Shown: positions 3,044 to 41,794 of the stretch, piece after piece
How positions within the stretch are numbered: the first letter of the stretch is position 1
Layout: every line of letters starts with the position of its first letter
Origin: a virus
Lineage: Duplodnaviria > Heunggongvirae > Uroviricota > Caudoviricetes
DNA length: 64,000 nucleotides
Virus record (IMG/VR): IMGVR_UViG_2881684137_000004
Coordinates: 153,571 to 217,570 of that record
Direction: 5' to 3' (one strand)
Translations under genes and position numbers: made by a program
The notes under the pieces: generated by a model
The model's database searches: none
Seen by the model: the letters and a program-made list of their open reading frames with translations, nothing else
What the model was told of the DNA's origin: nothing

Positions 3044-3617
3044 TAACTCACATCCTTTTGACCTATTTTTATAGTTATATATTACCATGTCAGTATCAAA
3101 AATTCAATTAAGTGTAGAACATTACAAATTAAGAAATTCATAACTTACTAAAACAACCATTCAGGATCTGATGTTGGTACCATGCATGTAATCAATTCTA
3201 AGCATTGAATTACTGTTTAGTTATCATAAATTCACTTGTAACGGTAATCTGATGATCAATTACACCCTGAGGATTAAAATGTCTTAGATTGGCATTTAAA
3301 CAGGTTATACGATGTATTGTCCTTAAGGGGTTAATAGTCTGTGAGGAAACAAGTGGTTTTCTTGTTTTTGAACAGGGTCAAACGGGAAAATGCTTTTTTT
3401 CCCGTGCGGCAGGCACTTTATATTATCTCTCCAATACTCAAGGGGGATTCTGTCACTCAGCGCAAAAGCAGCGCTTCATTCCCTTAGGAATCCAATCCCC
3501 CTTCTTGTCTACGGCTACGCCTACGCCAATTCATCCCCCTTGCCTTTATATAATGATGCTAACGCTTATATGTAAATGTAGAAATAAAAGGGACAATATC
3601 GTTCTGGTATATAGGTT

Positions 3618-3690
3618 AAAAAAGTTGTCCAATCTGTTACATTATATATATTATATATTTATATAATGAAAAGGAATGGACAACTTTTTT
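3618..3690. repeat. Perfect 14-bp inverted repeat flanking a 45-bp AT-rich core
   Basis: AAAAAAGTTGTCCA (3618-3631) / TGGACAACTTTTTT (3677-3690). Confidence 0.85.
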
Positions 3691-3695
3691 GTGTA

Positions 3696-4862
3696 TTAAT
3701 TTCCCTTATATTTTTTGATTTTTTCAATAGTTACTTTACTGTCATCATTAAAATCGAATGTAGTAGAAACAATTTTTCTAGTGTCTGTAATATAAGTTTC
3801 TTTAGTGCGATTATTTATATTAAACATTGATGCACCACTCTCTTTTTTACATAGAGCACTCTTGTGTCTTTTTTCAGCCAGCTGAACAATATAATCTTGA
3901 CTTTCAATATTAAGCAAGCTCATTTTCATATGCTTTTCTTTTGGCTCAAGTAAGAATTCACAATTTATTTCCTCAATTGCACGTTCAATGCTATTTATTT
4001 TATCGGGCGACAGTCTGTTAATCGCTTTTTCAATGTGTTTAGAATTATATCCAAATCTATACGATTGATAATAATACACAATATTCATTTTTTCCCTTAA
4101 TAGTGTATTTACTTTATTATTAAATTCTATCCTTTTGTCTTCTGGAACAAATGCTATGTCCATATTTAATCCCATATTTTCCTTTACTGTGTGTTTTACT
4201 GCTACAATATAATCCGCTTCTTGTTTTGTTGCTAATCTATAAGTACAGGAAACTAAATTCTCACTCGTGACTGAATATTGTGAATCTCCCCATTCGTCAA
4301 CATTCTCCTCAATAGTTGCGATTACTTCATTATTATCATTGGTCTTGACTGAAGTTTCAGCATGACACAAAATAACCTCTTTACTCCAATTTATTATGTA
4401 CTTATTTTTTAAATTGTTAAAGGCTTTCTCAACCTGATATTTTAATGTTCTATCAGTTGACGCAAAAAAGTCATTCATACTCAGGACATTAACATTTAAG
4501 TACTGACTGGACTTATTCTGATTTTTCTTGATGAAATTATATATGTCATTTATTATTTTCATTCTCTTCAACAATTTTGTTTTAGATATTAATAATTCTT
4601 GTTGATCATGAGTAGCAAGCATGTCTAAAAGCAATATTTCAATTATCTGTACATGTGATATAGTTTCAGTCTTAGGGAGCGGTTCTTGATACACTTCTTT
4701 AATAATAAAAGAAAATTTTTCTCTTTCATATGTGAAGTATCTCTCCCATTCGTTTAATTGTGCTATTTTCGCATTCCCAGTTTTCACTTTCTCATTTAGT
4801 AATTCACACATTTCTTTGTAGCTTTTGACTTTCTGATCTTTAGATAATCTACTTGTATCCAT
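3696..4862 (-). CDS. Conserved SPbeta-like phage hypothetical protein (resembles YonV from memory); possible DNA-binding or replication protein
   Basis: 388 aa; N-terminal YKEMCELLNEKVKTGNAKIAQL..YFTY..IKEVY motif. Confidence 0.6.
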   Translation of the reverse strand: MDTSRLSKDQKVKSYKEMCELLNEKVKTGNAKIAQLNEWERYFTYEREKFSFIIKEVYQEPLPKTETISHVQIIEILLLDMLATHDQQELLISKTKLLKRMKIINDIYNFIKKNQNKSSQYLNVNVLSMNDFFASTDRTLKYQVEKAFNNLKNKYIINWSKEVILCHAETSVKTNDNNEVIATIEENVDEWGDSQYSVTSENLVSCTYRLATKQEADYIVAVKHTVKENMGLNMDIAFVPEDKRIEFNNKVNTLLREKMNIVYYYQSYRFGYNSKHIEKAINRLSPDKINSIERAIEEINCEFLLEPKEKHMKMSLLNIESQDYIVQLAEKRHKSALCKKESGASMFNINNRTKETYITDTRKIVSTTFDFNDDSKVTIEKIKKYKGN

Positions 4863-4967
4863 TCGATATCACTACTCTCTGTATTCTATTTTCTGATTGG
4901 CTAATTCCGCGTATAGTTTAAATATTAATTGTATTGTTTATTTAGTTGTTCATTTTATTTATTTTGC

Positions 4968-5005
4968 AATTCGGATCGTGACAATTACCCGACACGATCC
5001 GAATT
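4968..5005. repeat. 13-bp perfect inverted repeat downstream of recD2 (hairpin or terminator)
   Basis: AATTCGGATCGTG / CACGATCCGAATT. Confidence 0.7.
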
Positions 5006-5016
5006 ATTTAGATTCA

Positions 5017-7341
5017 TTAAGCAACCAAGTATTTATTAAGCATTGTTCGTCTTCTCAGATTCGCTTTTTTGGAAAGTGATCTGTTTAATTCATCTGCTTC
5101 ACACACAATCACAGCATCATATCTTGCTCTAGTCAAAGCCGTGTAAATCAAATTTGCGTTACAGAAATGTGTATCATTGGGGTCTGTTATAATAATGACT
5201 ACTGGAGCAGATGAGCCTTGTGATTTGTGCATTGTTAAGCACCAGGAATGTAATAGTTGAATTTTGTCTACTAAAGGCAATCTAATTTGATCATGATCGA
5301 ATTGAATAATTATGCCATTTTTATTCCCGTCCAATACACCCTTACCAGTGTCAGTTATTATATCAATTACGAATCCTGTATCTCCATTTACAATATCAGT
5401 TTCATCACCATTTACATCCTCAATCCTGTATGTATTTCTTGTATTTATAATATAATCGTTTTTTCTTAATACATTATCTTCACCGAATTCAATTTCTATT
5501 TCACTGAATGGATTTACAATTTTCTGTATTTCTTTATTGATTTTTATTGTGCCAAGGTCGCCTTTTTTCTTCATAGTGAGTAGCATTATATCTTCAGGCT
5601 TGTAGCCCTCATCAAGGTATTTCTGATAATAAAATTTATATCCATCAATCATATATTTTTCTGAAACACTATGTATTCTTAGATTTGATCCATATTCTTT
5701 AACTCCAATAAAGTCATCATCAATAAATTGTTGTCCATTTCGAATTTTTGTTGCTATATCTAAAATGCCACCTTCTGACTGTCTGAAAACAATATCAAGT
5801 ACTGTAATAGGCACTTGATTACTCTCCTGCATATCATGAAGTAAATTCCCACACCCAACAGAAGGAATCTGGAATCCATCACCTACAAACAACAGCCTTG
5901 TGTTCGGATTCTTAATTTTCTTAAATAAAGATGCGCACAGATGCACATCAACCATACTCCACTCATCAATTACAATAAAATCTTCATGTATAGCTATCAA
6001 CTCGTTATCATCTTTCTTTTGTCCATATCCAATTGCCCTATGGATTGTCATTCCCTTTTGGTCAACAAGATATTCGGTCAGGATCTTTGCAGCCTTCCCT
6101 GTAGGTGTTAACCATTTCACTGTCAAACCAAGTTGGGTAAGAAGCTCTTTCAATAGTTTCTGCATAGCTGATTTACCTGAACCAGCAAAACCAACTAACA
6201 TTCCAATATCAAAATTCTTCACCATTTCAAAAAGAGATTTTTGTTGCTCAGATAGCCCATCTGGAAAATCATCTTTGTACTTTCTTTCCATTCTCTCCAC
6301 AAAGTCATCTACATCAAAATTCAATTTAGTGCAATGTTCAAGTTTAAACTTAATATAGTTAGCAATTCCTTTTTCAGCTTCATGCGTGTATAAAAGCATA
6401 ACCTTATCACCATCGACATGTAGCTGCGGATACATCTCAAATGGATCTTGTTTGATTACATCTTCAATACAGAATTCTTCAATTTGTAGCAACTCAACCG
6501 ATAACTGAACTAACTTATTGAATTTTGTATAAGTATGTCCTTCATTTTGTTGTTCTCCCAATGCATGTTTTACACCTGTAATGATTCTGAATGATGTTCG
6601 CATAGCATCTTCATATAGTAATTCAGCTTTTTCCCTGGTGATTCTGCCACTTTTGAGATCAACAGTAATATCGTAACGAGCCATATTCAAAGCTATCGCA
6701 TCTGCTGTCTTAAACCCAATGCCACCGACCCTAATTAACACATAAGGATTTTCTTTAATTTTTTGAATTGCTAGTTGTGCACTACCAAATTCACTCATGA
6801 TCTTTTGAATAGTATTATAGTTGATACCGTACTTACCTAAATGAGTTATCATTTCCTTATACTCAAGATTCTCTAAAACTTTTGTACGGACACGTTCATA
6901 TACCACTTCCCCAAAACCATGAACTTTTTTCCAATCAAAATTATTATTTTTTATAAGGTCAATAATATCTTCATTTGGATAAACCTTAAAAATCTCCTCG
7001 ACCTGTTTGTTTGTTAATAATGCTTTAAAGTAATCTCTTTGTTTTTCAGGGGTTTCAGGAATATCTTGATAAATATTTTTAATCCAATAACTTGCTCCAA
7101 AAGTTGGATCAATCTTATCAAGTTGTAACTCAGCTTTATATTCAGTACCGGTTTGTAGTTTTTGAGTTATCTTTCCTTTGATACTTACTTTTCCTCGCTT
7201 ATTAACTTCAATTCCCTTGCCATCGATTAAAGTACAATCATAGATATAAAATCCATCTGGACTATTATAAGTTTTAGGATGAACTTGCCAGTCTGGTTTT
7301 ATTAACACTTCAATTACATCATTTTCGTTCAATCGGTTCAC
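5017..7341 (-). CDS. recD2: RecD2-like SF1B ATP-dependent DNA helicase (start may be TTG at 7332)
   Basis: HhH NPY.L..GIGFKTAD; Walker A GFAGSGKS; TPTGKAA; TIHR; DEWSMVD; VGDGFQIPSVG; TMHKSQGS; YTALTRA. Confidence 0.92.
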   Translation of the reverse strand: MNRLNENDVIEVLIKPDWQVHPKTYNSPDGFYIYDCTLIDGKGIEVNKRGKVSIKGKITQKLQTGTEYKAELQLDKIDPTFGASYWIKNIYQDIPETPEKQRDYFKALLTNKQVEEIFKVYPNEDIIDLIKNNNFDWKKVHGFGEVVYERVRTKVLENLEYKEMITHLGKYGINYNTIQKIMSEFGSAQLAIQKIKENPYVLIRVGGIGFKTADAIALNMARYDITVDLKSGRITREKAELLYEDAMRTSFRIITGVKHALGEQQNEGHTYTKFNKLVQLSVELLQIEEFCIEDVIKQDPFEMYPQLHVDGDKVMLLYTHEAEKGIANYIKFKLEHCTKLNFDVDDFVERMERKYKDDFPDGLSEQQKSLFEMVKNFDIGMLVGFAGSGKSAMQKLLKELLTQLGLTVKWLTPTGKAAKILTEYLVDQKGMTIHRAIGYGQKKDDNELIAIHEDFIVIDEWSMVDVHLCASLFKKIKNPNTRLLFVGDGFQIPSVGCGNLLHDMQESNQVPITVLDIVFRQSEGGILDIATKIRNGQQFIDDDFIGVKEYGSNLRIHSVSEKYMIDGYKFYYQKYLDEGYKPEDIMLLTMKKKGDLGTIKINKEIQKIVNPFSEIEIEFGEDNVLRKNDYIINTRNTYRIEDVNGDETDIVNGDTGFVIDIITDTGKGVLDGNKNGIIIQFDHDQIRLPLVDKIQLLHSWCLTMHKSQGSSAPVVIIITDPNDTHFCNANLIYTALTRARYDAVIVCEADELNRSLSKKANLRRRTMLNKYLVA

Positions 7342-14720: not shown

Positions 14721-14795
14721 AGGTGTCCATGTTCCAAGGTTTGGCGATACGATCTCCAAAATCGCATGTGACAGGTTCAATTCCTGTGCCACCTG
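14721..14795 (+). tRNA. tRNA-Trp(CCA), atypical
   Basis: Acceptor AGGTGTC/GCCACCT, anticodon loop CTCCAAA (CCA 14756-14758), T-arm ACAGG-TTCAATT-CCTGT, discriminator G, no encoded CCA. Confidence 0.8.
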
Positions 14796-33085: not shown

Positions 33086-33167
33086 AGTCCATGTCTCCAA
33101 TTAGATATGGGCTTTTTTGCTAATGAATCTCTGAGAGCAGACTCATACTACTGCTCTTTTATTTTTT
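33086..33167 (+). terminator. Two tandem terminator-like hairpins immediately upstream of the TMP RBS
   Basis: AGTCCATGTCT/AGATATGGGCT+TTTTT and GAGAGCAG/CTGCTCTT+TTATTTTTT. Confidence 0.6.
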
Positions 33168-33184
33168 CAGAAAGGAGTAGAGAC

Positions 33185-34918
33185 ATGTCAAACGATTTAA
33201 GAATCTTAGTAAATGTTGGTGTAAATGAAGGTAAATCAATTGGTGAAATAAATTCTGCAATTAGCAAAATATCTAAGAGTGACGCATTACGAAGCATAAA
33301 GCTAAAGTTGGATATAGATTCTAAAGTTATTCAAACTTTAAATGAATTTAGTAAGAACTTGAGTAAAATATCTCAAATCTCCAATACCCAGAATGCGGCT
33401 TTGAATGGTGTAACATCTCAAGTTAAAAATCAATCGGATGCTTTTGATAAAGCAGCAACATCTGCAAGGAACTATATAAAAGAACAAGAAAGATTATCCA
33501 GAATTACTGGTAAACAGACTACAGTTTACGGTAATCCAAATAATAGCAATAAAACTACTGTTAGTGGTCGGAGTGGTGGAATCCAGGATATTGTTGACTC
33601 CTATAATCCTAAAAAGGATTTGGCTGATCAGACTAAGCTTGCTAATCAGATTGCTGATGGACGGATCAAAGCTCAAGAGAAATTCGAAAAAATGGAAGCA
33701 GATTCCCAGAAGAAGCGAATTGAAGCAGCTCATCGATTAGCAAATGTAGAGAACAAGAGAATAGATGATCGGAAAAATTTAGAACGAGAATACGATCAGT
33801 TTTGGCAGAAATCTTTACATAGTCGAACTCAAGAAGAATTAAAAGTAGCCAACAAACTTGCTAGTGATCGCAAAGCACTCGAACAAAGTGTTGATGAAAG
33901 ATGGCAAAAGAATTTAAAAGAACGAGAGCAAAAACAGCAGAATCTTGAACAAGGCAGAATAAAGAATGAGAACCAAGCATGGCATCAGGCTCATTTAGAA
34001 AAAGAGAAGCGAGAACAATTCTTACACGGACAACGAGTTCAGGATACATACAGAGCTTACAGTTTGGCTCAAGCTGAAGATAAAAAATACAATCAGAAAA
34101 GATTGCAAGATGAAATCAGTTTTCAGCAACAAAAAGCACGTTTAGAAACAAAATTAGCCGATACAAATAGAAGATTTGGTGCAGACAACAAAATAAAAAC
34201 ACAGGTTAATGAATTAAATTCTGCATTGGCCAATACAGCTTACACTAAGAATTATCGAAATGCATTAGCAGATATAGACATTCAACTTAAACGAGTTGTG
34301 TCCACCGCTAATACGTCAGGATCGCACATTGATAAATTCTCTCAGCAGATGGGTATTGCTGCTTCAAGGACAATTCAATGGGGTTTGACAATGGGTGTGT
34401 TATATGGCTCATTAAACAAGCTAAAACAGGCTGTTGGTGTCATTCTAGAAGTAGATAAGCAAATTACCACATTGAAAAGGGTAATGAACGAAGATACAAA
34501 CTTCGAGAAGATGATGCAGGGTAGTATAAAGATCGCAAATGAATTGGGTAGATCGATAATCCAAGTTAATGATGCAATGACTGGATTTGCAAGACAAGGT
34601 TACTCAGAAGATCAAGTATTGGCATTGAGTAAAACTGCAACGTTAATGACAAACATCTCTGAGTTGTCAGGCGATGAAGCAATGAGTTCGCTCACAGCTG
34701 CCATGACAGTATTCAATATTGAAGCAAGTAATAGTATGCGAATTATAAATTCTTTAAATGAAGTAGACAACAACTTCGCCATTGGCACTAAAGACCTTGC
34801 TATTGCTATGCAAAAATCAGGATCAGTTGCGAAGACATTCGGCGTAAGTCTTGAAGAATTAGTCGGACACACAGCAGCCATTGGTATTCAAACTAGAGAA
34901 AGTGGAAGCATTATCGGT
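33185..34918 (+). CDS. Tape measure protein, exon 1 (578 codons)
   Basis: AAGGAG RBS before ATG 33185; TP901-type core ..LNEVDNNFAI..GVSLEELVGHTAAI..TRESGSIIG ends at intron. Confidence 0.88.
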
Positions 34919-36283
34919 AAACAACTTGCCGCCTAATGTAGTAATGCATTAGTGAACATTTTACTATATCGGGGGAAGCGTTGGGGAACGTAATCCCGAG
35001 GGAAGATTATTGTGAGGAAATAGAAAAAGTGGTGATATGGATTTTAATAAAAGATCAAAAAGTTGTTGTTGTATGGAACACTCGAAACAAAGCTGTCTTT
35101 CAAGGGTTTGGTTATATCTTTACAAGTTTTGGCGACAGTATTACAGTTGAGCTATTGGAATTGACTAAACATTCACGTACAAAAGTCAATGTTGAATGTG
35201 ACTATTGTAAAAAAGTTTATAAACTACCCTATGCGCAGGCACAACGTGCTGAGAGACATTTATGCTCAAAGCAGTGCAGACATCTAATCGATAAGATAGA
35301 AAGCAGATGTTACATATGCAATATAAAGACACTAAAAAATAGAACACAAATGAATAAAAGGCAATCTGAATTTACATTTTGTAGTTTGAAATGCGTAGGT
35401 TCATATAATTCTAAAGTTAGAACAACTCACATATCTAAAGATTGCTTGATATGCAACAAACCTTTTAAAGTAAAACCCAGTACCTCTGAGACTCAAGTAG
35501 TGTGTTCTATAAAATGTCAAGCTTCTTGGCAGTCAATGTATCTCAGAGGAGAAAGCGCTAATAACTTCAAAGGTGGAAATGTAGATCTAACTTGTAGTAC
35601 TTGTACTGAACAGTATTCGGTAGCTCGACATAGAATCAATTCTTCTAAGTTCTGTTCTCAGTCTTGCAAACAAGATTATTGGAAGAATTACATTCTTCAT
35701 AATGAAGCTTTCAAAAAAGCACACTATGAAGGAAACTTGAGGTGGAGAGCGAATATTAGACAAACACTTCCCGAAAAAATGGTAAGAGAATGGTTAGTGA
35801 ACAATAATATTGATTTTATGCAGGAACAAGGATTTTTTCATAAGTACTATGCAGACTTTTGGTTAAAAAATACAAATATTATTATTGAAGTTTTCGGAGA
35901 TTATTGGCATGCAAACCCTCTAAAATATAATTCCGATAATTTAAATGAGCACCAAAAAGCACAGATCATAAAAGATGAGCAGCGGCTTAACGACTTTAAG
36001 AAACATGGTTTTAATGTTTTAATACTATGGGAAGATGATATTTATAATCATCTCGATAAGCTAATGAAAGACAAATTACTCACAATATATCCCCTTAACG
36101 ACTACACGTAGAATACCCTAATGGGGTAATGATATAGTCTGAACTTACGCTATAACCTTGTATTCTTTAAGGCGTAGAGAATCGGTCGAGTGTAAAGACA
36201 CTCTAGGGAGTACCGATTCCGCTATTTCAAAGGAAGTAGAAATAGTCAGTAGCTTACTTAAAGTAAGTGAAAGTAACAGATTG
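34919..36283 (+). mobile_element. Group I self-splicing intron (1365 nt) with homing endonuclease in P6
   Basis: P1 CGGT^AAACAACTTGCCG with U.G at splice site; P4 ATCGGG/CCCGAG; P6a TATTGTGAG/CTCACAATA; R AACGACTAC (36097-36105); S GATATAGTC (36131-36139); terminal G36283; splicing restores RESGSIIG-NSLKTIYSRL in frame. Confidence 0.92.
35041..36111 (+). CDS. Intron-encoded homing endonuclease: Zn-finger repeats plus Vsr/DUF559 (EDxHD-type) nuclease
   Basis: Repeated CxxC..CSxxC; PEK..YADF..IEVFGDYWH..KD..R..GF.VL.LWE; start probably ATT 35041 or GTG 35029-35032. Confidence 0.85.
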   Translation: MLIKDQKVVVVWNTRNKAVFQGFGYIFTSFGDSITVELLELTKHSRTKVNVECDYCKKVYKLPYAQAQRAERHLCSKQCRHLIDKIESRCYICNIKTLKNRTQMNKRQSEFTFCSLKCVGSYNSKVRTTHISKDCLICNKPFKVKPSTSETQVVCSIKCQASWQSMYLRGESANNFKGGNVDLTCSTCTEQYSVARHRINSSKFCSQSCKQDYWKNYILHNEAFKKAHYEGNLRWRANIRQTLPEKMVREWLVNNNIDFMQEQGFFHKYYADFWLKNTNIIIEVFGDYWHANPLKYNSDNLNEHQKAQIIKDEQRLNDFKKHGFNVLILWEDDIYNHLDKLMKDKLLTIYPLNDYT

Positions 36284-39200
36284 AATAGCTTAAAAACCAT
36301 TTACTCTAGACTTACAACAATGGATTCGGCAATAGGTGCACTTGACAGCGTTGGTGTTTCAGTCAAAGAATCAAACGGACAAATGAAGTCAGCAACAACA
36401 ATCATCGATGAATTGGCTGGAAAATGGGATGGACTTAGTGCTGCAAAGCAGCAAAATATTGCTGTTGACATAGCTGGCCGTTATCAACTTTCACGCTTCC
36501 TTGCTCTAATGGGTGGATATGATCTGGCAATTTCAGCTACAGAAGCAGCTTTAAACTCACAAGGCTCTGCAATGCGAGAAAATGCCAAGTACATGGAATC
36601 ACTCGAAGCACGAATCGAACGAATGAAAACACAATGGCAAGAGCTTGCTCTAACAATGGGCGATGCGGTACTAACCAATACACTGATTAACCTAATTAGT
36701 GTTGCAACAGAATTGGGCAATAGCTTAGTCACTGTAATTGATAAGTTCGGGTTATTCCCTCCGCTTTTAGGTACTGTAGCAATGGCTTATGTACTTTTTT
36801 CTGCCAAAGCCAGAGCATCAATATTAAGTGTAATTGGTATAATCACCGCTAAGACTAGTGTATTGCACAGTGTAACAGTTGCTACGACAATATGGGGTAC
36901 TTCCATGGGGATGTCAGGCGTTGCTGTTCGAGCATTAACTGTGGCTACAGTTGGTTTAACGATGGCTGTTAGAGGGCTAATGATTGTAACAGGTGTTGGA
37001 TTGGCTGTTGCAGCGTTAGGTTTTATAGTTGAAAAACTTGTCAATAAATTCGGAAATGCAAACAAAGTAATTGATGAAACTAGCATGTCTATTGATAAGT
37101 TGAACGAGTCGGCCTCAAATTTAAATGGTCTAAAAAAGCTTGCATCTGAATATGAGAAGTTCAAAGATATAACCGATTTAACGCTTGAGGATAAAACTAA
37201 ACTAGCAACAATTGAAAACGAACTAGCTAGTTCATATGGAATTACGACAACATCATTGCTTGAAAATAAAGATGCCTATGAAGTAAATAATGCTCTTATT
37301 GAAGAATCAATCAAATTAAAAGAAAAAGAATTGGCATTAAAATATGAGAATGAGATACTTTCATATAAATCAGATAAAAGCAATATCGATCAGCAAATCA
37401 TTGATAGTAAGAACAGATTAAAAGCGTTTGAGGATGAGAAGAAAGCACTGCTAGAGTTGGAAAAGCAAGGTGAAAACTTAAAAAGGCAAGATTTAAATCT
37501 CACCGGAGATGAGATGCTTAAATACCAGAAGAAAGACCGAAAAATGGGTCTTCTTGTAGATGTCTCTTGGAATCCGTTAGAAATTCTAGCTGCTAAAATT
37601 AAAGAAGCCAACAGTAAAATAGATACTGAACTAGTTAAGCTTGATGAAAACCTCAGCAAAAAATCATCTAGTATTTCTGCCAAGCTGAAAACATCAGCTA
37701 CCATGCTTAAAAACAATGGTGTGGAAATTAAAGATGCATCTTCTATTTTGATAGATGGTTTTTCAGCAATTGCTGCAATTAATGATATTGACTTTGATAA
37801 CTCAACTGTTCTTGAAAAGATTGTTAAAGAACTAAATTCACTTGATATAACTTCGATAGAAGATGTAGAAGCTGCTTTTAATAAATTTGGTAATGCAGCT
37901 GGGAATAACACAGACGCTTTGGAGATCTTGAAGAATGCTTATCTTCGTTATCAGGTAGCGATTAAAAGCGGCTCTTATGATAGTGGCGAAGATCCTGCCG
38001 ACCAGTTTGAACAAGATGCTAAAGCAGCTAAAGATGCAGCTAAAGAGTACGACAATCTGGTTAGTGACTTAAAAAAATTAAATCAAACGCTTTATGATAC
38101 AAGAGATGGAAAGTCATTAACAGCCGAAGCCACACAAGAATTAATAGCCAATTTCCCTGAACTGTTAGATGGTATTTATAAAACTACAGCAGGATGGGGA
38201 ATTGAAGAAATTGCCTTGAATGATTTAAGAGAGGCAATTATCGAGAAGGCGACTCAAGGGTCAATTAGTGAAAAAAATGCAACGGCTGCGGCTCTAAATG
38301 AAATTACCAAGAGAACAAAGATGTACGGTGTTGAAATCGAAGCCATTAATGACGTCCAATCGGCTCGTGATGCCCTGGTAAAATTTGATGAGAAGATAAG
38401 TTTTTATGAAAGCCAAGAGCCTAATACATATGGGCAAAAATTAATGTGGGAAGCATTAGCGAACCAAGTCAGGACTCAAAAAGAGGCTCTTGAGGGATTG
38501 GTCAATGATGGAGCACTAGAAGATACTACTTATAAGGCATTTCAATCACACCTGGATAAACTTAATGACATTTTTAATGACAAAACTTTCGGTGTAACAG
38601 AGAGCACAAAAAATAGTACAAAAGCCAAAGAGAAAGATAACAAAGAAACCAAAGAAACAATTCGCCTGTTAACAGAGTGGCAGAAAAAGTTATTAGATGT
38701 TGATAATTCGCTTCACAAAGTGTACAGCGATCGCACACGTTTTGCGAAATGGTCTAAGGAGTATCAAGATTCTTTAAAAGAGGAAATTAGACTTCTTAAC
38801 GAAAAAAAAGATATTTATAAAGAAGCTACTAAAGATCCTACCAAGCTCATGGAGATTGAGCAGACCATTACAAAGACGACATCAACAAAAACTGGTACGC
38901 CTTCTACGAACACAAACACGAATACAAACAATACAGCAAGTACACCAGCTTTAACAGCGTTATTTGATAAAGCAAAAGAATTATATGGAAGTTTTAAGTA
39001 CGAACAAAATGGTGGGAAATTCGTTGGAACTTTTGAAGAGTTTCTGAAAAAGGCTGAATCAGATTGCTCACAACTTGTTCAAGAGTTTTTCAAAGAATTT
39101 CTTAATATCGATGTTCCGCGAGTTGCCGCTGACCAGTTCAAGCAAGGAATGAAAGTCGCCAAAGAAGAACTTGCTCCTGGTGATCTCGTTTTCTTTAACA

Positions 39201-41794
39201 CAACTGGAAAAACCGCATCACATGTTGGGATCTATAAAGGTAAAGATAAGTTTGTCCACATGGGTTCAACAAGTAAACTTAGTGAGCAGAGTTTGAAAGA
39301 TAGTTACTGGGCTTCTAAATATGATGGTGCAAGACGTATTGATGGTGTGAATAGCGCGGCTCCTTATAAAGCGACTTCATCTTCAACAGCTACGACATCG
39401 AGTTCTAAAACTGAGACAGCTCAACCCACACAGGATCAGCTTGAAGCAGGTGCACGAGAAGCAGAACAGAATTATAGAGATATGATGGATCTGATTTATC
39501 AAAGACAGATCAACCTTATTGATAGCCTTGTTGAAACATCAAATCGTGAACTTAAAAAAATTGATACCAGCATCTCTAAAGATAGCTATAAGAAAACACT
39601 TGTTAAAGATACTTCCGAAGAATGGCGAAAACTGAATTTAAACGAATATGACTATTACACTCAAAAGCAAAAAGAACTAAGCAATCAGAATAACACCATT
39701 CGAAAACACATTGCCGAATTTGGAATCACATCTGGTGAATTTGATGATTTATTAGAGCAGAATAGTCAAGAGTGGCTGAAATATCAAGAGAAAAAGAATC
39801 AAAATTTGATCAGTAGCCTTGAAAGTATACGCAATGAGATATCAAATAAATATTCTTCTCAAAGAGCCACAACAGATCGAAGAATCTCCTTAATAGGCGA
39901 TGTCAATACAGAAGAAGATGCAAAAGCAATTGCAAAATATGGTGCGGCTACAGTTAAATCGCTTAAGAATGAACACAAGGATATTTATGCTCAAATTGTT
40001 AAACAGCGTAAAATCTTAAATGATCCTAAATCTTCAGGTTCAGAAAAAAATGCCGCTCGTTTTATTTTAGATGAATTAGAACTCGATGCCAATAACAAGA
40101 ACGTTGAAATGATCAACGCTGCAAGGAATTACGGCAAACAACAAGCAGAAGCATTTGTATTTGGATTTAATGATACGATTGAAGAACTAAACTTTCAAAT
40201 GTCTCTTTTAGGTGATTCTGAGGAAGATAAAAAAAGAGCAAAAGAACTAACCGAAGAGCTTCTTCAAGTGGCTATGGATTCATACAAAGCATTGCAACTC
40301 CAATTAATAGAGCTACAGAGGAAACTCGGGACAGAATTATCTAATGATGAACGTGCAGAAAAACAAGCCAAGTATGACGCAATGAAAGAAGATGCTAAAA
40401 AGTTTCAACTTCAAATCACCAAAATAAATAATGATGCATTCAATGATCGGGAACGCGAAGCTGACAATATTATTTCGAATTACAAAAGGATGCTTGAGCA
40501 AGAAAAGAAACTTCGTCAAGATTTTTTGAAAGAAGCTAAAAAGGACGAAGATGAACGCCACAAAGCGAAAATAAAAAACTTAGATGAAGAGTTAAATAAA
40601 TTCCAGGAGCAAATAAATGCCCAATTAAAATCATTAGATTCGGATATTTCAAAAGAAGATTATGAAGAAGGGCGAAATAAGCTCTTAAAAGAACGAGAAG
40701 AAATTCAGAAAAAAATTGATATTTTATCGCTTGATGATTCTTTCGAGGCAAAGGCAAAGAAAAAAGATTTGCAAACGCAATTGGATCAAAAAGATGAAGA
40801 TATCATCAAGTATCAACGTGATCGCGAACGAGTTCTTAGAAAAGAAGGGTTGCAAAAGCAGCTAGAAGATCGAACTAAAAGCATTGAGAATGAGAAAAAG
40901 CTTGAAAACGATTTTTACGAATCTAATATTAAGAATATTGATAAAGAATTGGAAATGTTAGATAAGTACTATGAACAGCGACTTACTGATGAGAAATTCT
41001 TTTATGACATGAAGAAAAATCTAATGTCAGAAGATACGCAAGTTGTTATCAATGAATTGAAAAAAATTGAAATGGAATACGCAAAATTCTTCGCAGAGAT
41101 CGAGCGAAACTCAAAGATATATGGTGATAAAATTGCAAGCAATCTCACTTATTCATTCGGTAAAGATCTTGACAATGCAAAGAATTTTAAGAACGGTGAG
41201 ATTGGTAATGGTTCTGGTGGAAATGCGGAAAATTCACCAAAACCAAGCGTTGCTGACACGATTGCTGCCTGGAACAAGTATCTTGAGAATAAAAAACAAG
41301 CAGAAGAACTTGCTAAGACAATTAAAAACACAACTTCTAAAGAATTGATCGACTTATCTCGGTCAAAGATCGCTGAGCTTAATACAGCAAATAACGAATA
41401 CAGAAGTAAACACAAGTTCAAAGATGGAGGCTATAATGAGCTGGTTAATTTACCTTATAATCAAATCTTCAGTGCGGAATCGGGTGGAATGACGCCTGCT
41501 TGGGGAAAAGAAGGCAAGCTCTTAATGGCACATGAAAAAGAGTTGATTTTAAATAAAACGGATACGAGTAAATTGCGTGATGCAATCCAAATTACACGAG
41601 ATATTTTCAATGGCTTGAAAAATTTTGATTTTTCGAATATTTTAGCTCGTCCTAGATCTGGAGATAGCTCTACTGGAACGGTTATTAATAAACTTGAAAT
41701 AAACGTGTCTGGTAATTTTGCTCAACGCAATGGTAATGATGTAGGTGTAAACATTATTGATGAAATGAAAAGAATGGGAGTAAAGTTCAGTTAA
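36284..41794 (+). CDS. Tape measure protein, exon 2, with internal NlpC/P60 peptidoglycan hydrolase domain
   Basis: NSLKTIYSRL..AGRYQLSRF.ALM; TM segments; coiled coils; DCSQLV..PGDLVFF..HVGIY..FVH near 39060-39270; spliced product about 2414 aa. Confidence 0.9.
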   Translation, partial: NSLKTIYSRLTTMDSAIGALDSVGVSVKESNGQMKSATTIIDELAGKWDGLSAAKQQNIAVDIAGRYQLSRFLALMGGYDLAISATEAALNSQGSAMRENAKYMESLEARIERMKTQWQELALTMGDAVLTNTLINLISVATELGNSLVTVIDKFGLFPPLLGTVAMAYVLFSAKARASILSVIGIITAKTSVLHSVTVATTIWGTSMGMSGVAVRALTVATVGLTMAVRGLMIVTGVGLAVAALGFIVEKLVNKFGNANKVIDETSMSIDKLNESASNLNGLKKLASEYEKFKDITDLTLEDKTKLATIENELASSYGITTTSLLENKDAYEVNNALIEESIKLKEKELALKYENEILSYKSDKSNIDQQIIDSKNRLKAFEDEKKALLELEKQGENLKRQDLNLTGDEMLKYQKKDRKMGLLVDVSWNPLEILAAKIKEANSKIDTELVKLDENLSKKSSSISAKLKTSATMLKNNGVEIKDASSILIDGFSAIAAINDIDFDNSTVLEKIVKELNSLDITSIEDVEAAFNKFGNAAGNNTDALEILKNAYLRYQVAIKSGSYDSGEDPADQFEQDAKAAKDAAKEYDNLVSDLKKLNQTLYDTRDGKSLTAEATQELIANFPELLDGIYKTTAGWGIEEIALNDLREAIIEKATQGSISEKNATAAALNEITKRTKMYGVEIEAINDVQSARDALVKFDEKISFYESQEPNTYGQKLMWEALANQVRTQKEALEGLVNDGALEDTTYKAFQSHLDKLNDIFNDKTFGVTESTKNSTKAKEKDNKETKETIRLLTEWQKKLLDVDNSLHKVYSDRTRFAKWSKEYQDSLKEEIRLLNEKKDIYKEATKDPTKLMEIEQTITKTTSTKTGTPSTNTNTNTNNTASTPALTALFDKAKELYGSFKYEQNGGKFVGTFEEFLKKAESDCSQLVQEFFKEFLNIDVPRVAADQFKQGMKVAKEELAPGDLVFFNTTGKTASHVGIYKGKDKFVHMGSTSKLSEQSLKDSYWASKYDGARRIDGVNSAAPYKATSSSTATTSSSKTETAQPTQDQLEAGAREAEQNYRDMMDLIYQRQINLIDSLVETSNRELKKIDTSISKDSYKKTLVKDTSEEWRKLNLNEYDYYTQKQKELSNQNNTIRKHIAEFGITSGEFDDLLEQNSQEWLKYQEKKNQNLISSLESIRNEISNKYSSQRATTDRRISLIGDVNTEEDAKAIAKYGAATVKSLKNEHKDIYAQIVKQRKILNDPKSSGSEKNAARFILDELELDANNKNVEMINAARNYGKQQAEAFVFGFNDTIEELNFQMSLLGDSEEDKKRAKELTEELLQVAMDSYKALQLQLIELQRKLGTELSNDERAEKQAKYDAMKEDAKKFQLQITKINNDAFNDREREADNIISNYKRMLEQEKKLRQDFLKEAKKDEDERHKAKIKNLDEELNKFQEQINAQLKSLDSDISKEDYEEGRNKLLKEREEIQKKIDILSLDDSFEAKAKKKDLQTQLDQKDEDIIKYQRDRERVLRKEGLQKQLEDRTKSIENEKKLENDFYESNIKNIDKELEMLDKYYEQRLTDEKFFYDMKKNLMSEDTQVVINELKKIEMEYAKFFAEIERNSKIYGDKIASNLTYSFGKDLDNAKNFKNGEIGNGSGGNAENSPKPSVADTIAAWNKYLENKKQAEELAKTIKNTTSKELIDLSRSKIAELNTANNEYRSKHKFKDGGYNELVNLPYNQIFSAESGGMTPAWGKEGKLLMAHEKELILNKTDTSKLRDAIQITRDIFNGLKNFDFSNILARPRSGDSSTGTVINKLEINVSGNFAQRNGNDVGVNIIDEMKRMGVKFS

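Follow-up and report, generated by a model that had tools for sequence, protein, structure and literature searches.

The segment at positions 34919 to 36283 on the + strand of the window, as we call the whole 64,000-nucleotide stretch of phage DNA that was analysed, is a group I intron within the gene for the tape measure protein (TMP) of an SPbeta-like prophage. The assignment of these 1365 nt is supported by a U.G pair at the 5' splice site, a terminal G, two partial matches to the Rfam group I family RF00028, six homologous introns and the covariation among them. The intron divides the conserved PF10145 core of the gene and carries the gene of a zinc-finger endonuclease with a Vsr-like nuclease domain in one of its loops. 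Taken together, we regard it with high confidence as a mobile element.

One tape measure gene in two exons

Three consecutive open reading frames (ORFs) occupy the + strand of the locus, at 33107-34936 (609 aa), 34981-36111 (376 aa) and 36158-41794 (1878 aa). The first runs up to ...TRESGSIIG, the final codons of which, ATC GGT, end at base 34918; unspliced, the frame continues with KQLAA and terminates at the stop codon TAA (34934-36). The sequence NSLKTIYSRL starts at residue 43 of the third ORF, at base 36284 (first codons AAT AGC), and TTG 36158, the listed start of this ORF, is intron-internal. Joining 34918 to 36284 keeps the frame and creates the continuous sequence ...RESGSIIG|NSLKTIYSRL... 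(G|N in the following). The joined TMP comprises 2440 aa when counted from ATG 33107, from which the frame of exon 1 is open, and 2414 aa from ATG 33185, which is preceded by the Shine-Dalgarno sequence AAAGGAG and is the likely start of the protein. With this start, exon 1 extends over 33185..34918 (+) and exon 2 over 36284..41794 (+), the latter as one unbroken frame of about 1836 codons.

The domain structure of the two ORFs leads to the same junction. Profile positions 4-137 of the Pfam family PF10145 (PhageMin_Tail) match residues 477-606 of the first ORF, and positions 136-201 match residues 43-107 of the third. As the two halves meet at 137|136, a single domain is interrupted precisely at the proposed junction. 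Exon 2 additionally encodes an NlpC/P60 domain, and exon 1 can be aligned to YomI of SPbeta and to the TMP of Psychrobacillus phage Perkons up to ...ESGSIIG. Intron-less TMPs, which share 30-45% identity in this comparison, are continuous across the site: SPbeta YomI reads TRESGNIVG|NSLKTIFARI, the Perkons protein TREGASTIG|QSIKSILARV and that of Geobacillus virus E3 TRESGNVVG|NSLKTIYSRI. An earlier note on this DNA, made from the sequence alone, had claimed that the ORFs at 33107 and 36158 are one gene, that splicing joins RESGSIIG to NSLKTIYSRL in a protein of about 2414 aa and that the unspliced mRNA gives a stub of 583 aa; among the findings that would refute it, it had named intron-less homologues that are not contiguous at G|N. 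The split PF10145 domain and the in-frame join aligned to intron-less homologues bear out the single gene, both lengths are reproduced from ATG 33185, and YomI and the Perkons and Geobacillus virus E3 proteins are all contiguous at G|N.

The codon at the junction distinguishes the two kinds of allele. The glycine is encoded by GGT in all seven intron-containing alleles, and by GGG or GGA in the intron-less ones; GGT supplies the U needed for the U.G pair at the splice site. Megablast matched the locus to none of 50,697 phage records, and a DNA search in nine other genomes of the genus was likewise negative, so that a near-identical intron-less allele is lacking for comparison.

The locus sits in a bacterial contig (C22) of a 7.7-Mb genome in 66 contigs. 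The relatives of its TMP belong to SPbeta-like phages, namely Geobacillus virus E3, which has the closest TMP homologue in the phage collection, Perkons, and SPbeta/phi3T with YomI, and the gene neighbourhood in the relatives includes YomO, YomN and an integrase. For annotation, the 'genes' at 33107 and 36158 should be merged into one TMP of about 2414 aa, with the ORF between them labelled as a homing endonuclease. The same correction is due for GP42/GP43 of Geobacillus virus E3 and for the prophage of Paenibacillus donghaensis, where the parts of the TMP are annotated or called as separate genes.

Ribozyme structure and conservation

The 5' splice site lies in the hairpin P1 (34915..34931, +), in which CGGU|AA (34915-34920) pairs with the internal guide UUGCCG (34926-31). 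The wobble pair at the site is formed by U34918 and G34928 and is the same in seven of seven introns. At the other end, the omega-G is G36283, likewise kept in 7/7 introns and directly preceded by the conserved sequence GAAAGUAACAG. Moving both splice sites by -1 leaves the protein unchanged, but breaks the rules for the U and for the omega-G, and this placement was rejected.

Between these ends the ribozyme is laid out in two halves on either side of the ORF, all elements being on the + strand. The 5' half (34933..35017), delineated by RNAalifold on the ORF-deleted introns, contains P2 (34933-40/34945-52), the 5' strand of P3 (34959-64, pairing with 36108-13), P4 (34969-74/34994-99), P5 (34979-82/34987-90) and the 5' strand of P6/P6a (35000-35017, pairing with 36079-94, of which P6a' takes 36079-87 and P6' 36088-94); compensatory changes were found in P2, P3, P4, P5 and P6a. 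The 3' half (36079..36283), defined by an RF00028 partial match and covariation, reaches from P6a'/P6' to the omega-G. It comprises P7 (36100-04/36135-39), which pairs GACUA with UAGUC and is invariant, P8 (36114-28), which displays compensatory changes, P9 (36146-51/36171-76), P9.1 with P9.1a (36179-87/36212-20, spanning 36179-36220), P9.2 (36221-28/36239-46) and P9.3 (36252-57/36263-68). Inspection and folding show the core to be complete, with a P3-P8 and a P4-P6 domain and with P7 pseudoknotted across P3. The gap between P7 and P3' measures 3 nt only. P7.1 and P7.2 are consequently absent, and hence the intron is not of the textbook IA1 or IA2 phage type; the 3-nt J7/3 speaks against either subgroup.

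Six further loci have this intron, with an ORF of the same type, at G|N as well; they were found by tracing the closest relatives of the endonuclease to contigs, genome collections and viral collections. These are Paenibacillus donghaensis CP021780 (L007, identical in sequence to L069), a metagenome contig (L008/L009), an SRA contig (L010), Virgibacillus halotolerans (L012), Sporosarcina globispora (L013) and an IMG/VR contig (L070). RNAalifold recovered every helix from P1 to P9.3 in the seven ORF-deleted introns. Over 100 base pairs in seven introns, P7 having been added to the pairs by hand, 96.5% of the sequence-by-pair cells are canonical, as against 36-44% in controls with the 3' partners slid by 1-3 columns. 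Two-sided compensatory changes affect 57 of the 100 pairs and only 3-13 pairs in the slid controls; the consensus structure was taken from the same alignment as the counts, which inflates this contrast, yet the effect is still very large. A version with four introns gave similar figures (95.9% canonical, compensatory changes in 46 of 109 pairs). P1 and P7 are invariant and therefore contribute no covariation signal.

Rfam scores have to be read against the long insertion in the ribozyme. The gathering threshold of RF00028 is 50 bits. Searching the whole window with Rfam returned no match at the gathering thresholds or at E<=0.05, and the whole genome contained no group I match at the gathering threshold. 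Restricting the search with RF00028 to a 1.8-kb sub-window revealed two partial matches on the + strand, in the correct order on either side of the ORF. One covers 34909-35126 (13.3 bits) and spans P1-P6, the other 36011-36161 (23.5 bits) and spans P7, P3', P8 and P7'. Measured against 50 bits, 23.5 and 13.3 bits leave the intron below the threshold, plausibly due to the 1.05-kb ORF insertion. Homologues with the same insertion display the same partial pattern at 28.4 and 24.9 bits. A related intron that lacks an ORF and also lies in the TMP core (L008, 5459-5696) scores 62.2 bits, above the threshold; it is 57-60% identical to the ribozyme of the window and shares its signature blocks.

A score below the threshold could in principle also mean decay, and the locus does reside in a bacterial contig. 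It might accordingly be a remnant in a cryptic prophage, with the ribozyme or the endonuclease dead and the TMP reduced to a pseudogene in two ORFs. We consider this improbable. All helices pair in the window's own copy, and 96-97% of the cells are canonical overall; the endonuclease ORF is undamaged, with every invariant residue of its family in place, and the frame of exon 2 is unbroken over its whole length. Given the equally low scores of the ORF-bearing homologues, the insertion is the simplest reason for the low Rfam value.

The nrdA gene of Aeromonas phage Aeh1, which is split by a homing endonuclease gene (HEG), provides the model for another explanation, according to which a free-standing HEG splits the gene so that the TMP is made as two subunits, each translated by itself, without any RNA splicing. 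Annotators do treat such loci as two genes, and GP42 and GP43 of Geobacillus virus E3 are labelled 'N-terminal' and 'C-terminal'. For the window, this arrangement is very unlikely. About 280 nt of non-ORF sequence around the HEG preserve an RNA structure through compensatory changes, and N36284 has neither a start codon nor a Shine-Dalgarno sequence, the sole in-frame start being TTG 36158 inside P9. Furthermore, it is the PF10145 domain that is interrupted midway, and the gap between the two Geobacillus virus E3 genes is itself an ORF-less match to RF00028.

Finally, an intein or a group II intron has nothing in its favour beyond the interruption of the gene, and both have a negligible probability: TAA 34934-36 closes the frame right after exon 1, which excludes an intein, Pfam detects no reverse-transcriptase domain and Rfam no group II RNA family, and the folded structure is that of a group I intron.

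The intron-encoded endonuclease

The HEG occupies 35029..36111 (+) in the loop of P6a and encodes 360 aa from GTG 35029, its frame being open from TTG 34981. We infer GTG 35029 as the start from the N-termini of homologues, from the low confidence of the structural model over residues 1-20 (pLDDT <50) and from the sequence GAGGA at 35014-18, 10 nt upstream. TTG 34981 was rejected as a start, since it sits in P5 and the first 20 residues of the frame are unmodelled and missing from the homologues.

The protein (P0002) consists of a small N-terminal domain, four Cys4 fingers resembling zf-FCS and TRASH domains, and a C-terminal Vsr-like nuclease domain. The fingers, each a CxxC...CxxxC unit, lie at about residues 73-99, 109-137, 155-179 and 205-229, and the nuclease domain covers residues about 260-365 with E265, D292, H310 and D332. 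Among 14 homologues P264, E265, D292, E303, G306, D307, W309 and H310 of the C-terminal domain are invariant, as are N312, P313, D332, W350, E351 and the finger cysteines. In Pfam, P0002 alone just missed DUF559 (18.3 bits; cut-off 20.6) and had no NUMOD match. In the set of 14 family members, DUF559 was matched by ten, MTES_1575 by eight, Vsr by seven and zf-FCS by four; relatives match zf-FCS PF06467 and TRASH, and NUMOD3 PF07460 is confined to distant relatives.

The best sequence match of P0002 in the PDB, the homing endonuclease I-Bth0305I (3r3p), is not significant (E 0.3), so that structure prediction was needed. The AlphaFold model has a pLDDT of 81.4, and with it Foldseek retrieved Vsr (1cw0, E 4.1e-4) and I-Bth0305I (3r3p, E 4.9e-4, target TM 0.80, 25% identity) as the best matches, followed by 1vsr and 3hrl. 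Phmmer aligns D292 and H310 with the positions of D196A and H213A in 3r3p, the two residues mutated in this crystal structure, and D332 with D222. As judged from the predicted fold, the nuclease domain is of the EDxHD type, and the DNA-binding half differs from the NUMOD2/HTH arrangement of the prototype.

The end of the coding sequence doubles as ribozyme core. Within a dual-use segment of 33 nt (36079..36111, +), the last 11 codons of the endonuclease (LTIYPLNDYT*) also form P6a', P6', J6/7, the 5' strand of P7 and the start of P3', with the TAG stop inside P3'. Homologues retain the peptide tail IYP(L/R)NDYT, which has low pLDDT in the model. In homologues, P3' has covaried to stop-less sequences, and their ORFs consequently extend into P8. 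A feature confined to the window's copy is that the GAG of its Shine-Dalgarno sequence doubles as the end of the P6a 5' strand; 20-60 nt of spacer lie there in the other introns. Since the 3' end of the ORF is at the same time part of the core helices, translation of the endonuclease and the folded core are mutually exclusive on one RNA. By analogy with I-TevI, this exclusion may be used for regulation, with translation competing against folding.

These results substantiate the remaining structural claims of the earlier note. The boundaries with their length of 1365 nt, the U.G pair in P1 and the terminal G all hold, the core helices were located, and the assignment as a group I intron now rests on the RF00028 partial matches, on folding and on covariation in seven introns. 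Its Vsr/EDxHD-type endonuclease was recovered by Foldseek, by the Pfam matches of family members, by the invariant residues and by the alignment to 3r3p. The ORF does lie in the P6a loop, in line with the P6 loop named there, and its 3' end at 36079-36111 overlaps not only P7 but also P6a', P6', J6/7 and part of P3'.

We propose the following course of events. The late-operon transcript would fold into the P1-P9.3 ribozyme, and exogenous guanosine would attack 3' of U34918, which is held in P1 by its wobble pair with the internal guide. G36283, the last base of the intron, would subsequently position the 3' splice site, and exon ligation would create a single mRNA of about 2414 codons encoding ...RESGSIIG-NSLKTIYSRL... 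On the DNA level, the four Cys4 fingers presumably recognize the intron-less TMP sequence and the Vsr-like domain presumably cleaves near the insertion site. Through recombinational repair, the intron could then spread to phages that lack it, either on co-infection or in encounters between prophage and phage. If the transcript behaves in this way, tail assembly would depend on splicing, and SPbeta-like phages would join the prophages in which the building of a tail is expected to require RNA self-splicing.

The tape measure core as a possible homing target

The G|N site is one of several insertion sites seen in the TMP core, the others being EVD|NN (Geobacillus virus E3, ORF-less), TFG|V and AG|YQLSRF. 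The metagenome locus L008 bears three introns in one TMP gene, with the same lineage at G|N and at two other sites, and L010 contains a second, related intron at another site that leaves a mini-exon of 51 nt. Relatives of the endonuclease follow the same trend. Among the 80 best of at least 464 relatives on viral contigs, 52 have a match to the TMP core beside or around them, and 21 of these on both sides. In the genome collections, 10 of 58 loci of endonuclease relatives had such a match. Relatives without such a match are mostly distant, stand-alone Vsr/DUF559 domains.

These counts tie a family of zinc-finger and Vsr-like endonucleases strongly to the most conserved stretch of the TMP. It is an evenly balanced proposition that the endonuclease represents an undescribed, TMP-specialized branch of Vsr-like enzymes in which zf-FCS/TRASH fingers replace NUMOD/HTH motifs, and that this branch, together with one intron lineage without P7.1/P7.2, has colonized at least three or four sites in a stretch of some 120 codons in the PF10145 core. 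Its hosts would be prophages of Bacillaceae, Paenibacillaceae and Planococcaceae as well as more distant TMPs in MAGs of Bacteroidota, Treponema and Lachnospiraceae. In that case, the TMP core would rank beside the nrd or DNA polymerase genes, as a major hot spot of homing among structural genes. Homing into this stretch could help account for the mosaic boundaries of tail modules, and the endonuclease family could yield new nucleases with long recognition sites.

The element itself belongs to a known kind and does not overturn current understanding. Group I introns in TMP genes (2008) and EDxHD endonucleases (2011) have both been published, and the location in a TMP gene is thus not new. The earlier note had remarked that phage group I introns mostly target DNA-metabolism genes, which understates this work: in prophages of the Bacillus cereus group, group I introns were shown to occupy three sites of the TMP gene, TMP-IVS1, IVS2 and IVS3 (Tourasse and Kolsto 2008, PMC2504315). 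The introns are of type IA1 or IA2, related ones have been retargeted to different sites via P1, and the only TMP HEG reported among them is an H-N-H gene in IVS3a (PMC2504315). The window's intron resembles TMP-IVS1-3 in its insertion into a conserved TMP region of a Firmicute prophage, in the occurrence of several sites per gene and in the presence of a HEG in some of the introns (PMC2504315). It differs from these IA1/IA2 introns and their H-N-H gene in its lack of P7.1/P7.2 and in its zinc-finger and Vsr-like HEG; furthermore, the host phage is SPbeta-like here and lambdaBa01-like there (PMC2504315). The published TMP-IVS3b locus of pBWB404 was not recovered in a plasmid search.

EDxHD homing endonucleases were described in 2009-2011 with I-Bth0305I as the prototype, which is encoded in the recA intron of Bacillus phage 0305phi8-36 (Taylor et al. 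2011, PMC3239194; PDB 3R3P). Both I-Bth0305I and the enzyme of the window are intron-encoded in a Bacillus-type phage and possess a C-terminal Vsr-like domain with E, D, H and D residues. They differ in the target gene (recA versus TMP), in the position of the ORF (P5 versus P6a) and in the N-terminal DNA-binding part, which consists of two NUMOD2/HTH motifs in I-Bth0305I and of four Cys4 zf-FCS/TRASH-like fingers here (PMC3239194). The 'x' position of the EDxHD motif is taken by N208 in the prototype and by F305 in the window. A literature search of incomplete coverage found no report that connects Vsr-like HEGs with introns in TMP genes. Both the zinc-finger architecture of the family and its strong association with the TMP may be undescribed.

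With regard to the position of its HEG, a close parallel is the td intron of phage T4, where the I-TevI gene lies in the P6 loop and where translation of the endonuclease and folding of the ribozyme are interlinked. The td intron, however, is of type IA2 with P7.1/P7.2, encodes a GIY-YIG enzyme and interrupts a gene of nucleotide metabolism. The intron of the window is, like td, a phage group I intron with its HEG in the P6 loop, but lacks P7.1/P7.2, encodes a Vsr-like instead of a GIY-YIG enzyme and resides in a TMP gene.

Geobacillus virus E3 also has a group I intron in its TMP core (L001, 8582-8885; 48.7 bits against RF00028). In contrast to the intron of the window, it is ORF-less, 304 nt long and equipped with a 40-nt insertion at the position of P7.1/P7.2; the window's intron has neither element there. 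Its insertion site, EVD|NNF, is located 50 codons upstream of G|N.

Clustered introns in the tape measure gene

An SPbeta-like tape measure protein (TMP) gene on a metagenomic contig, L008, carries three introns inside ~90 codons of the PF10145 core: intron 1 (3526-3818) at TFG|V, the endonuclease-bearing intron 2 (3894-5273) at G|N, the site used in the window, and intron 3 (5469-5815) at AG|YQLSRF, the last scoring 62.2 bits in Rfam. This third intron and the window's intron belong to one lineage. The SRA contig L010 holds two introns: besides the one at G|N, another from the lineage of the window's intron occupies positions 1-265 and ends in ...GTGAAAGTAACAGAATTG just upstream of it; a mini-exon of 51 nt (YTTAIGQVTRESGSIIG) separates the two.

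In Geobacillus virus E3 (NC_029073), the TMP is recorded as two genes, GP42 'N-terminal' and GP43 'C-terminal'. Between them lies an ORF-less group I intron of 304 nt (L001:8582-8885, corresponding to NC_029073 about 33502-33805), whose RF00028 score of 48.7 bits is slightly below the threshold. Its P1 contains a U.G pair and its last base is G; the insertion point, EVD|NNF, lies 50 codons upstream of the G|N site in the window.

Other loci in the window and its genome

The genome that contains the window encodes a second, divergent TMP on the minus strand of another contig (G000:C61:78214-78370), with ~31% identity to the core of YomI, the intron-less SPbeta TMP. It is uninterrupted at the position homologous to the window's G|N (...SQQSAPIAA|NALNSIYSRL), and its target sequence has diverged. 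Only one copy of the endonuclease is present in this genome. A candidate tRNA-Trp(CCA) at window positions 14721-14795 was not recovered: ARAGORN calls zero tRNAs across the entire 64-kb window, and Rfam gave no match at E<=0.05.

Relatives of the endonuclease

The small domain preceding the zinc fingers of the intron-encoded endonuclease (window 35029-35230, about residues 20-70) occurs alone in Bacillus phage vB_BsuM-Goe17, with 41% identity over residues 18-100, and likewise in one gut phage contig. Relatives of the endonuclease split more distant TMPs too (L015, L019, L074, L077, L084 and others), which lie in MAGs, Paludibacteraceae and Treponema among them, or on viral contigs. In these, the match to the YomI core stops at query positions about 258-263 and restarts at 295. 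Because the restart lies ~30 residues on, the alignments suggest a further insertion site or a longer insertion in these lineages.
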